DNA from: a virus
Lineage: Duplodnaviria > Heunggongvirae > Uroviricota > Caudoviricetes
Direction: 5' to 3' (one strand)
DNA: 23,143 nucleotides
IMG/VR virus record: IMGVR_UViG_2537562189_000005
Of the stretch, positions 18,001-23,143 are shown piece by piece (position 1 is the stretch's first letter; each line of letters begins with the position of its first letter). Position numbers: made by a program.

Positions 18001-21000
18001 CGCCGAGCCTTTATCGGGCTGTACGAAGAGAAGCAGCTCTCTGATAACCAGGATTTACATGAAAAATACTTTCTGGAATTAATGGACATCATTAATAAAG
18101 GATTTGGCTTGTTAATGAAAAAGAAAGGGATTCGAATAGCTCCCCTTGAAAATCATTTTACAGCAAGCAGTATTAATTCCTGTGATTTAAAGCATCACAC
18201 ATCCGATGGGAAAGTTGAATCAAACAACAAAATATCAATTAATCATTAATTTATTCACAGGTGAGGTAGAGTGCGTGCGCCGGACACGGATAAGAATCCG
18301 GCACTGACAGTTTACTGAAAAGGATATATCCCTGAAAAGTCAGGGCATAACACGAAAGCGCCCGGAGAAGTTAGTCTCTCTGTATAGGTCGTCGTTAAAT
18401 TTAATTCGATCGTGCGCTTCCGGTTGTGGCAATCCGCGAAATGGCGCGGCGGTAAGTATGGCGGGGTTATTCCTTCCCCCGTTGAGGACACCGGGTTGTC
18501 AGGTTGACCATACGCTTAAGTGACAACTCCGCTGCAACGCCCTCTGTTATCAATTTTCTGGTGACTTTTGGCGGTATCAGTTTTACTCCGTGACTGCTCT
18601 GCCGCCCTTTTTAAAGTGAATTTTGTGATGTGGTGAATGCGGCTGAGCGCACGCGGAACAGTTAAAACCAAAAACAGTGTTATGGGTGGATTCTCTTTAT
18701 CCGGCGTTAATTGTTAACTGGTTAACGTCACCTGGAGGCACCAGGCACTGCATCACAAAATTCATTGTTGAGGACGCGATAATGGAAACGTTATTACCAA
18801 ACGTTAATACGTCTGAAGGTTGTTTTGATATTGGTGTTCTGCTCAGTAACCGGGAGTTTACTGAAGATGCCATTAATATGAGGAAATATGAGCCTTATCT
18901 GCTCAATGATAATTCCATACTTTCCCGAATTGCTCTTCTTGAACTTGGTATTTTCGGAGAACGTCAATGACTTCAGCATTTGCACTGATGATGACGGTTT
19001 TTCTTATAACGGGTGAATCACAGAATGTGATTACCGGAATTTATGCAAGTAAAGAATCCTGCCTCCAGGCAAGAGACGAGCAAAAATTTTCTGGTGAATG
19101 CCTCCCGCTAAAAAAAGTATCGCTGTACCTGAATAACGAAACACCGGCTGGATAACCCTCCAGCCATATTAACACCATACCAACGGATTAAAAATGCCAG
19201 CAATGGCAGGGATTCGTTCACCCTGAAATCTGTAATGAGGTTAAAACAAAATGAGTAAGGTCTTTATTTGCGCTGCTATTCCTGATGAACAGGCCATAAA
19301 AGAAGATAGCGCTGTTGCGGTGGCCACTGCCATTGAAGCTGGTGATGAGCGTCGCGCACGCGCAAAATTTCATTGGCAATTTCTGGAGCAATTCCCTGCA
19401 GCTCAGGACTGCGCTTATAAATTTATTGTCTGTGAGGATAAACCCGGCATACCCCGCCCTGCCCTCGATTCCTGGGATGCTGAATATATGCAGGAAAACC
19501 GCTGGGATGAGGCGTCTGCTTCCTTTGTCCCGGTTGAGACTGAATCCGATCCGATGAACGTCACTTTTGACAAGCTGGCCCCTGAAGTACAGAACGCTGT
19601 CATGGTTAAGTTCGACACATGTGAAAACATCACCGTTGATATGGTTATTAGCGCACAGGAATTGTTGCAGGAAGACATGGCAACATTCGACGGACATATC
19701 GTTGAAGCGTTGATGAAAATGCCAGAAGTTAACGCCATGTATCCGGAGCTTAAGCTGCATGCCATCGGGTGGGTTAAGCATAAATGTAAGCCTGGTGCCA
19801 AATGGCCCGAAATTCAGGCAGAGATGCGCATCTGGAAAAAACGTCGCGAAGGTGAACGCAAGGAAACCGGAAAATACACGTCTGTTGTTGATCTCGCCCG
19901 CGCCAGAACCAATCAACAGCACAGTGAAAATTCAACAGGAAAAATCAGCCCGGTCATTGCTGCCATTCATCGCGAATACAAGCAGACATGGAAAACACTG
20001 GATGACGAACTGGCCTACGCTCTCTGGCCTGGTGATGTGGATGCCGGAAACATTGACGGCAGCATCCATCGCTGGGCAAAAAATGAAGTTATCGACAACG
20101 ACCGCGAAGACTGGAAGCGTATCTCGGCATCAATGCGCAAACAGCCTGATGCCCTTCGCTACGACCGCCAGACTATTTTTGGCCTTGTCCGTGAACGTCC
20201 GATCGACATTCACAAAGACCCTGTGGCACTGAACAAATACATTACTGAATACCTGACTACAAAGGGCGTGTTTGAAGATGAAGGAAGAAATCAGAGCGCA
20301 ACTGATACTCTCTCGTCGCCAGTACCAGAAACTGATGCAGTGGAAACGGCAATTCCGGACAACGAAAAAACCGAATGCAAAGTGGAAGTCGAACCATCTG
20401 TAGAGCGTGAGGGGCCGTTCTACTTCCTCTTCACCGACAAGGATGGCGAAAAATACGGTCGCGCAAACAAACTTTCTGGTCTGGAAAAAGCACTAGCCTT
20501 GGGAGCTACGGAAATCACAAAAGAGGAATACTTCGCACGTAAAAACGGCACGTACTCAGGTTCACAACAAAATACTGGTGCATCTGACACGACCGCACAA
20601 CCAGAGCCGGTAAAAGTTACCGCTGACGAAGTAAACAAAATTATGCAGGCAGCCAATATCAGCCAGCCTGACGCCGATAAGTTGCTTGCTGCCTCTCGCG
20701 GAGAATTTGTTGCAGGGATTAGCGACCCGAATGATCCGAAATGGGTAAAGGGGATTGAAACCCGCGATTCTGTAAACCAGAACCAGCAAGAATCGGAACA
20801 GAACGACCAGAAAGCGGAACAAAACAGCCCAAATACGCAACAAAACGAGCCAGAAACGAAACAACCTGAGCCAGTAGCGCAACAGGAACCGGAAAAAGTC
20901 TGCACCGCCTGCGGTCAAAGCGGTGGCGGCAACTGCCCTGATTGTGGCGCGGTGATGGGTGACGCAACATACCTGGAAACATTCAATGAAGAGAATCAGG

Positions 21001-23143
21001 TTGAAGTTCAGGAAAATGATCCGGAGGAAATGGAAGGTGTTGAATATCCGCACAAAGAGAACGCTGGCGGTAATCAGCATCACACCAGCGATAATGAAGC
21101 TGGCGGGACGGCAAATCCCTTAATTACCATGAACGGTCATCATAAAATCACATCCACCAGCAGAATGTGGCACCACATGATGATCGACCTTGAAACCATG
21201 GGAAAAAATCCCGATGCCCCGCTTATCTCAATAGGTGCAATATTTTTCGATCCGCAAACCGGAGATATGGGGCCGGAATTTAGTAAGACCATCGATATGG
21301 ATACTGCTGGCGGAGTCATTGATCGTGGCACCATTAAATGGTGGCTTAAGCAATCACGGGAGGCGCAATCTGCCATTCTGACCGATGAAATCCCGTTAGA
21401 TGATGCACTGCTGCAATTGCGGGAATTTATCGACGAAAACTCCGGCGAATTTTTTGTTCAGGTCTGGGGAAATGGAGCCAACTTCGACAACACGATTTTG
21501 CGCCGTTCATACGAACGGCAGGGGATCCCCTGCCCGTGGCGTTACTACAACGATCGCGATGTACGCACAATCGTTGAGCTGGGAAAAGCCATGGACTTCG
21601 ATGCCAGGGCGGCTATTCCATTCGAAGGTGAGCGCCACAATGCGCTGGATGATGCCCGTTACCAGGCAAAATACGTTTCAACTATCTGGCAAAAACTGAT
21701 CCCGAATCAGGCTGATTTTTAATGTTCAACCCCGGTCGTTGCCCACCAGCTATAGTGGCGGCGACCATGATTAGCGAACGACGCTCATGGCAAGACTTAT
21801 TCTGCTCACTGAGTGGGCAAAAGAGGAATTCAGTGAACCGGTCCCTACTCCGAGTACGTTAAGTAAATACGCTAAAGCCGGAATGATATTTCCTCTCCCC
21901 AAAAAAGTTGGAAGACGCTGGCGAGTGGATCCGCAAGCTCGCTTTGTCGGAATGGTAAACAAGCCGGAGGTGATCGCCACAGATCACCCTGCTTTGAAGA
22001 GGATACTGGAAGATGGCGCGCCCGCGAAAATATAAAACCGATGTTCCGGGATTATCTCCGTATTTTGACAAAAGAAATAACAAAGTTTACTGGCGTTACA
22101 GGCATCCCATAACAGGCAAAAATCACGGTCTCGGCAGTATTGACCAGAAACTGGCAGAAACTATTGCAGCAGAAGCGAACAGCCGTCTTGCCCGGCAGCA
22201 AATGGAACAAATGCTCAGTCTGCAGGAGAAAATTATTAGTGATACCGGCGGTTCATCAACCGTTACCATTTTTCTGAATAATTACAGAAAAATTCAACAG
22301 GAAAGATATGAAAACGGCGAGATCAAACTCAACACGCTGAAACAGAAAGCGGCCCCTCTCAGGGTATTTGATGAACGTTTTGGCACCAGACCGTTAGATG
22401 CCATAACCGTAAAAGATGTGGTATCAGTACTGGAAGAGTACAAGGCCAGAGGACATAACAGAATGGGACAAATTTTCAGGAAAGTACTGATCGATGTTTT
22501 CCGGGAAGCTCAGCAAACGGGCGATGTCCCGCCAGGCTTTAACCCTGCAGAATCGGCAAAAAAACCGCAGGTGCGGATATCAAGACAGCGACTGACTTTT
22601 GATGAGTGGATGATGATTTATAACGCAGCGGAAAAGGATGGTTACTTTTTACAGCGCGGTATGCTGCTGGCACTGATGACAGGCCAGCGCCTTTCAGATA
22701 TTTGCAAAATGCAATTTTCGGATATCCGGGATGGTTATCTTCATGTCGAACAGCAAAAAACAGGAACCCGGATTGCCATCCCTCTGGCTCTGCGTTGCGA
22801 TAAATTAAATCTCACCCTGGATGATGTAGTGTCATCCTGCCGCGATTGCGTTCTTAGTCCGTGGCTATTGCACCACCATCACGCGAAAGGGACAGCTAAG
22901 CGCGGCGGGATGGTTAAGCCAGCAACATTAACCGTTGCATTTAAAAAAGCCCGGGATTCTGTGGATTACAACTGGCGTGCTAATGGCACCCCACCCTCTT
23001 TCCATGAGCAGAGATCTTTATCAGAGCGATTGTTCAGAGAGCAGGGGGTTGATACCAAAATTTTGCTAGGCCATTCGAATCAAAAAATGACCGATATTTA
23101 CAACGACGCACGCGGTAAGGAATGGAAAAAACTGGTCATTTGA

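Follow-up and report, generated by a model that had tools for sequence, protein, structure and literature searches.

What would a temperate phage gain from an exonuclease that shares part of its body with the recombination protein RecE, carries a nuclease domain of another fold at its C-terminus and is accompanied by no annealing protein? This question is raised by a gene in a viral DNA stretch of 23,143 nucleotides (IMG/VR record IMGVR_UViG_2537562189_000005, Caudoviricetes), which was analyzed over its full length and is termed the window in the following. The window comprises the early/regulatory half of a lambdoid prophage integrated beside ompW. The open reading frame (ORF) in question occupies positions 19251..21722 on the + strand, starts with ATG and encodes 823 amino acids (aa). 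A sequence-only reading of the window had described the product as a RecE-like protein with a C-terminal DEDDh exonuclease domain and without a RecT-like partner. We establish here the domain architecture of the protein, the intactness of its catalytic residues, the purifying selection that acts on it, the lack of a partner and the Chi-rich surroundings of the gene. The interpretation that we favor, with a probability of about one half, is that the protein is the sole recombination-module protein of a prophage of the Tritos/mEp460 type, where it would serve, as a 3'-5' DNA exonuclease on a tether, to condition the ends of phage DNA for host RecBCD-RecA.

The domain map of the protein, with the basis of the individual assignments in brackets, is as follows:

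19251..21722, + strand: whole gene, RecE-scaffold/DEDDh exonuclease (100% identity to RefSeq WP_000048374.1; PHROG 2082)
19251..19868, + strand: N-terminal domain type A, aa 1-206
19989..20264, + strand: helical core domain, aa 247-338 (AlphaFold2 (AF2) predicted local distance difference test (pLDDT) 76-90; BLASTP to RecE; domain combinations)
20265..21173, + strand: predicted disordered tether of ~300 aa, aa 339-641, from scaffold to nuclease (low pLDDT; ratio of nonsynonymous to synonymous substitution rates, dN/dS)
20675..21124, + strand: mosaic segment, aa 475-624, with 76% DNA identity to K-12 recE aa 455-590
20751..20891, + strand: Gln/Glu/Pro-rich low-complexity stretch VNQNQQESEQNDQKAEQNSPNTQQNEPETKQPEPVAQQEPEK, aa ~501-547 (direct sequence reading)
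20901..20945, + strand: CxxC-N7-CxxC zinc-ribbon motif, C551/C554/C562/C565 (sequence; weak Pfam DZR match)
21174..21689, + strand: DEDDh (DnaQ/DexA/Rv2179c-like) 3'-5' exonuclease domain, aa 642-813 (Pfam, alignments, dN/dS)

The type-A N-terminal domain consists of an alpha/beta part followed by helices and has no recognizable known fold. The helical core finds its counterpart at about aa 278-360 of RecE and also in the 'RecE-2' proteins considered below. AF2 pLDDT values are mostly below 50 across aa 340-600 in a model that ends at aa 600, and confidence is also low at the zinc ribbon, the cysteines of which lie in CTAC (aa 551-554) and CPDC (aa 562-565), 7 residues apart. Both the Gln/Glu-rich linker and the zinc ribbon had already been picked out in the sequence-only reading, and both are present. 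When computed against the alleles of phages mEp460 and Tritos, dN/dS was ~0.08 for the N-terminal domain, 0.15-0.21 for the DEDDh domain and 0.5-0.9 in the acidic linker (aa 546-640). These values indicate purifying selection on the folded parts, with a tether that is free to vary.

The nature of the C-terminal domain is clear. Pfam PF16473 (Rv2179c-like 3'-5' exoribonuclease domain; gathering cutoff 27 bits) matches aa 642-813 with 223.2 bits (E=2.5e-66) over model positions 2-177 of 177, a match well beyond chance, and the motifs of the family are found as DLET (aa 646-649), NFD (aa 744-746) and HNALDD (aa 796-801). The catalytic residues D646, E648, D746, H796 and D801 align with D7, E9, D119, H186 and D191 of T4 DexA, and all five are invariant when the protein is aligned with DexA and with EcD, a DexA homolog from E. 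coli. The assignment of the C-terminus to the DEDDh type instead of the PD-(D/E)XK fold of RecE, which had been proposed from the motifs, is therefore borne out, and the motifs stand where they had been placed.

How far, then, does the resemblance to RecE of the Rac prophage (exonuclease VIII, b1350) extend? In BLASTP, aa 262-626 correspond to aa 278-592 of K-12 RecE (E=6e-61), and the NCBIfam model PRK09709 is matched by aa 246-626 at positions 271-603 of 877. The RecE-like segment claimed earlier thus exists, confined to the non-catalytic middle of the protein: the alignment ends at RecE residue 592 and hence stops where the PD-(D/E)XK nuclease of RecE begins, Pfam PF12684 being located at aa 615-850 of the K-12 protein. 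The mosaic recE-like DNA segment likewise stops just short of the catalytic domain in either protein. PF12684 has no Pfam match in the 823-aa protein, and the window gave no tblastn hit to the nuclease domain of RecE. The two proteins have in common the helical core, an acidic/Q-rich linker, a conserved DADKLLAASRGEF...DPNDPKWVKG motif and the zinc ribbon, for which RecE has the same CxxC-N7-CxxC arrangement at aa 518-532, and their genes take equal positions in the early-left operon near xis-int. They differ in that Rac RecE possesses a PD-(D/E)XK 5'-3' nuclease, carries PF06630 at its N-terminus and has recT as its neighbor, whereas the protein studied here has a DEDDh head, another N-terminal domain and no recT. 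Judged by these alignments, the resemblance to RecE is real and limited to the helical core and the disordered linker with its zinc ribbon, and the domain content predicts a polarity opposite to the 5'-3' direction of RecE. One could still argue that the protein is a true RecE, i.e., a 5'-3' exonuclease for double-stranded DNA that works with RecT supplied in trans, for example from a resident Rac prophage. Many records do carry the label 'exodeoxyribonuclease VIII', and the middle region is homologous to RecE. However, the PD-(D/E)XK domain, which reportedly, in work by Muyrers from 2000, contacts RecT, is missing, which refutes the proposal at the domain level, and the RecE equivalog NF007259 scores 274.9 bits against a curated cutoff of 1269. 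We consider the chance that the protein is a true RecE to be practically negligible.

A second line of evidence comes from the company in which the scaffold is found in other proteins. An exhaustive search with aa 1-345 among 1.84 billion proteins, clustered at 50% identity, returned only 171 clusters. The 64 cluster representatives of at least 450 aa were classified by BLASTP; they carry DEDDh heads (12), RecE-type PD-(D/E)XK heads (13), heads of the type present in Pectobacterium phage ZF40 (21) or heads that were not recognized (18). The helical core was detected in most of these representatives and in every head class. The N-terminal domain is either of type A, as here, or of type B (PF06630), and every combination of N-terminal domain and head was seen. 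In these comparisons, the helical core thus occurs with two types of N-terminal domain and three types of head, PD-(D/E)XK, DEDDh and, with the ZF40-type head, a probable Rad52-like annealase. This picture goes beyond the existing annotation. Since the DEDDh head alternates with PD-(D/E)XK and annealase heads on one and the same core, it is placed in recombination biology, and the arrangement points to a common targeting role of the scaffold. The 'RecE-2' proteins compared here are gp07 of phage ZF40 and a 710-aa protein of Stenotrophomonas phage BUCT708. With the protein studied here they have the N-terminal domain of type A and the helical core in common (26% identity over aa 11-377), as well as PF27430, with or without PF27432, and the operon position. 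In a 2025 classification of lambdoid recombination modules in Genome Research (PMC12315714), "RecE-2" proteins appear as proteins without a nuclease domain. Precomputed Pfam annotation divides our protein into PF27430, PF16473 and PF27432.

The relatives of the DEDDh head itself point in the same direction. The closest homolog with an informative context is an exonuclease of phage mEp235 (182 aa), which shows 56% identity across the entire DEDDh domain and has Sf6- and epsilon34-type equivalents according to the notes in its record. Both genes are part of the early-left operon. The mEp235 enzyme is a single-domain protein encoded in a module with the order Rad52-type annealase - single-stranded DNA-binding protein (SSB) - exonuclease - Abc2, while the protein studied here stands by itself, as a fusion with a RecE scaffold. 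Among relatives of solved structure, the nearest in sequence is T4 DexA (PDB 8KEL/8KEN; 25-28% identity), a 3'-5' DNA exonuclease that prefers single-stranded DNA (PMC12153337). DexA and EcD share the DEDDh fold family and the invariant catalytic residues with the 823-aa fusion, from which they differ as single-domain proteins. These relationships also bear on the possibility that the head is an exoribonuclease which trims the 3' ends of RNA, be it pL transcripts including the precursor of the small RNA (sRNA) DicF, or host RNAs. PF16473 is defined by an exoribonuclease, NCBI often uses the name '3'-5' exoribonuclease', and DicF is processed from the very same operon. Against this stand the nearest characterized relatives, DexA and EcD, both of which are DNases, the exchange of the head for DNA recombination heads on the same scaffold, and the placement of the stand-alone mEp235 homolog among recombination genes. 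RNA trimming as the function of the head is thus unlikely in our view.

The earlier statement that no annealing protein is encoded between the exonuclease gene and xis proved correct: the stop codon and xis, which starts at 21787, are separated by 64 bp, leaving no room to encode anything. The search was extended beyond the window. In RefSeq, the annotation of the complete ~67-kb prophage lists neither RecT nor a Rad52-like protein, SSB or anti-RecBCD (Gam-type) protein, and genes of RecT, Erf or Sak type were not found when the whole prophage was searched. A PHROG scan of ten ORFs, mostly annotated as hypothetical, did not reveal a gene for an annealase, SSB or anti-RecBCD protein. Nor did tblastn, for which RecT, a Rad52-type annealase, SSB, Abc2, Gp157 and the RecE nuclease domain served as queries. 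Neither a canonical RecE-fold C-terminus nor a nearby RecT homolog, the two findings that would have contradicted the sequence-only reading, came to light. The plaque-forming phages mEp460 and Tritos contain the same gene in the order dicF-dicB-ydfD-exonuclease-xis-int, and no annealase, SSB or Gam-type gene was found in their sequenced early regions. The same order without a partner in these phages identifies the arrangement as a feature of the phage type and not as decay.

The prophage is also rich in Chi sites. Nine Chi octamers are present in the 23-kb window (+ strand: 1745, 4453, 7853; - strand: 5267, 5584, 8311, 15801, 21154, 21743) and 13 in the 66.7-kb prophage, with an expectation of about 0.2-0.7 per strand from base composition. 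Six of the nine share one orientation. One site lies within the exonuclease gene and a further one (21743-21750, - strand) just past it:

21154..21161, - strand: Chi site GCTGGTGG inside the exonuclease gene

The nine octamers fit a class of Chi-rich phages without a recombination system of their own. The classification introduced above describes a Chi-rich "Tritos" class of four phages (Table 1, class B) with Tritos as the prototype, in which a nuclease is present and annealase, SSB and anti-RecBCD functions are absent (PMC12315714). A nuclease, the absence of the same three functions and abundant Chi sites are what we find in the prophage studied here. That article also records 3'-5' nucleases of the DnaQ-like kind in lambdoid recombination modules and judges them to be genuine members; a fusion architecture of the exonuclease is not described in its accessible text.

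Taken as a whole, our favored interpretation would read as follows. Two folded N-terminal modules would form a RecE-type scaffold, to which the DEDDh exonuclease would be tethered by a disordered linker of ~300 aa with a small zinc ribbon. The gene would be transcribed late in the pL operon, after dicF-dicB-ydfD and before xis-int, and from this position the protein would act during lytic growth or induction. The DEDDh head would degrade DNA 3' ends. RecBCD requires near-blunt ends, and host 3' exonucleases blunt ends. Trimming of 3' tails or flaps by the DEDDh head could thus yield near-blunt phage ends onto which RecBCD can load and, once it has arrived at Chi, pass the phage DNA to RecA. 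A RecET-style exonuclease/annealase reaction would not be run by this enzyme. The end-conditioning role is proposed because the phage lacks annealase, SSB and an anti-RecBCD gene and contains many Chi sites. We infer DNA as the substrate, the 3'-5' polarity and the hand-off to RecBCD, the latter from context.

Several points weigh against this interpretation. The name-giving member of PF16473 is an exoribonuclease, and the substrate could hence be RNA. For the N-terminal scaffold, neither a known fold nor a partner was found, an unrecognized annealase may hide among the small hypothetical proteins, and a literature search retrieved no paper on this protein. Furthermore, the classification of lambdoid modules doubts that DnaQ-type genes near int belong to the recombination module, and it notes that 3'-5' exonucleases of the DnaQ type usually inhibit homologous recombination (PMC12315714). 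In view of this usual inhibition, the protein may instead have an anti-recombination role or another role.

An entirely different function would be defense. The DEDDh head could act like EcD in HREX-type defense, selectively digest the 5-hydroxymethylcytosine (5hmC) DNA of T-even phages and thereby confer superinfection immunity on the lysogen. EcD digests 5hmC DNA, including that of T4, and protects cells against T4 when provided on a plasmid (PMC12153337). The DEDDh domain belongs to the same Pfam family as EcD, and the gene is intact in thousands of prophages. We recovered the EcD sequence via the primer sequences published in the same article. Identity of the two proteins was considered and rejected: EcD is a separate protein of 189 aa that is 36-38% identical to the DEDDh domain and differs from it at the diagnostic residues. 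At the positions for recognition of 5hmC, DexA D169 (E in EcD) is replaced by K779 and DexA W152 (W in EcD) by Y766. 5hmC selectivity is said to result from loss of the tetramer-forming DexA residue D90, which is A78 in EcD (PMC12153337); in two alignments this residue is kept as Asp in the sequence 'PLDDALL'. Judged by the published residues, the DEDDh domain does not appear to be an anti-T4 nuclease of the EcD/HREX type. PADLOC, which contains models of defense systems, gave no hit, the gene, for which no separate promoter was detected, lies most distally in the repressed pL operon, and its closest relative is the exonuclease from the mEp235 recombination module (56%) and not EcD. As the 5hmC residues are not kept and a PADLOC hit is lacking, defense is possible but not favored, and we regard it as an unlikely function, on a par with the trimming of RNA. 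exoD of the DLP12 prophage was tried as a further possible relative; tblastn gave no match.

EcD was encountered in its own right during these comparisons. The protein (189 aa, MIDTET...PFLNI, Ala at position 78) is encoded in viral/prophage IMG/VR contigs. In one of them its gene (5682-6248, - strand) resides in a prophage early region with a DNA methyltransferase gene beside it and an integrase gene near it. The 'bacterial' anti-T4 exonuclease of PMC12153337 therefore appears to be prophage-borne. The published EcD reverse primer contains one extra A compared with the IMG/VR sequences.

The leftward early operon of the prophage has the order LexA-type repressor, ydfA, ydfB, ydfC, a gene for a 124-aa hypothetical protein, DicF, dicB, a ydfD-like gene, exonuclease, xis and int. 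The immediate neighbors of the exonuclease gene are:

18556..18607, + strand: DicF sRNA, encoded upstream within this leftward early operon (Rfam RF00039, 75.8 bits)
18782..19155, + strand: dicB and ydfD-like gene (DUF1482), directly upstream of the exonuclease gene
21787..23143, + strand: xis and int, directly downstream; the prophage end adjoins ompW

Positions 18556-19155 constitute a complete Qin-like dicF-dicB-ydfD cassette, in which DicB is a cell-division inhibitor and the YdfD-like protein a lysis protein. Neither a + strand promoter nor a convincing terminator was found just upstream of the exonuclease gene, which is thus probably read from pL. Early lytic expression would also suit a nuclease that serves as an anti-defense factor and destroys the multicopy single-stranded DNA of retrons, complementary DNA made by defense-associated reverse transcriptases (DRT) or oligonucleotide signals during lytic growth. 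The chemistry of a 3'-5' exonuclease for single-stranded DNA matches such targets, and accessory genes accumulate near int. Yet the protein bears no similarity to known anti-defense proteins, no direct evidence for such a role was found, and its ties to recombination modules are the stronger ones, such that we deem anti-defense improbable, somewhat more so than defense itself.

Could the gene simply be a decaying relic without function? Many prophages of the host are defective, and E. coli K-12 provides a pertinent example. Its Qin pseudogene ydfE (b1577) has the same dicF-dicB-ydfD genes upstream and is 95% identical to aa 1-256; truncation by IS2 left K-12 with an N-terminal fragment and without the nuclease part, in contrast to the full-length gene in the window. 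On the other hand, the full-length gene (at least 80% coverage) is intact in 3534 of 5426 complete E. coli genomes (about 65%), with a median of two copies per carrier genome, and in plaque-forming phages, and dN/dS amounts to 0.08-0.21 across the folded domains. Loss of function is accordingly very improbable, though not quite to the degree that applies to a true RecE.

The exonuclease family as such is already annotated and catalogued. The RefSeq entry WP_000048374.1 is labeled "exonuclease", family members are also termed "3'-5' exonuclease" or "3'-5' exoribonuclease" by NCBI, and the 'exonuclease' profile of PHROG 2082 matches over the full length (1861.9 bits, 1-823 of 823). The exonuclease genes of Tritos, mEp460, Evi, HannyBb, PhiR42_1 and PPompW prophages share 90-94% DNA identity over the full length; the Tritos allele is 91% identical and has the same neighbors. 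The window therefore contains another allele with no difference of substance, and the partner-less arrangement, too, is already published (PMC12315714).

Across 91% of its length the window shares 98.8% identity with E. coli 2013C-3181 and N51, and its prophage is close to plaque-forming phages. In strain 2013C-3181 (NZ_CP027312.1, 1224689-1295483), two tandem lambdoid prophages are integrated at ompW, each ending in its own copy of exonuclease-xis-int; a fragment of ompW lies between the two. The window is devoid of ~2.4 kb found in 2013C-3181 and of three tRNA genes annotated there. Further observations concern regions distant from the exonuclease gene. Two tandem copies of the STnc100 sRNA family (Rfam RF02076) are located at 2189-2378 and 2442-2638, both on the - strand (141 and 121 bits), upstream of a gene for a SASA/NanS-like esterase (- strand). 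A hokD/sok type I toxin-antitoxin locus (10338-10663; sok RF01794, 117 bits) adjoins a transposase ORF of the IS4 family (IS421; 9027-10145), the transposase being annotated as frameshifted in the reference genome. Positions 10834-11930 contain neighboring ORFs of 191 and 153 aa that match the two halves of one PHROG family, phrog_12777 (352 aa); the reference has a single 1092-bp gene at this place, and the gene thus looks split or frameshifted in the window.

What our analysis contributes is a correct description of a known family, and the interest that is left lies in the function of the protein and in its architecture with swappable heads. The question it raises is in what way lambda-like phages handle recombination, given that nucleases of opposite polarity are mounted on one scaffold and that 3'-5' exonucleases normally oppose recombination. 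A tentative and rather doubtful extension is that the RecE-type scaffold with its A- or B-type N-terminal domain, helical core and long tether serves temperate phages generally as a 'delivery arm' for recombination. Such an arm would bring interchangeable heads to one common target, which might be a DNA structure or a host factor. In this scheme, the DEDDh form would be the version for phages with many Chi sites and no annealase that depend on RecBCD, and the 'RecE-2' proteins would be fusions of the scaffold with an annealase. Should this be true, the N-terminal part of RecE, which has long gone unexplained and improves linear-linear recombineering, would receive a first role. If, as favored here, the enzyme prepares ends for RecBCD, this would explain the recombination-dependent growth of Chi-rich phages without an annealase.

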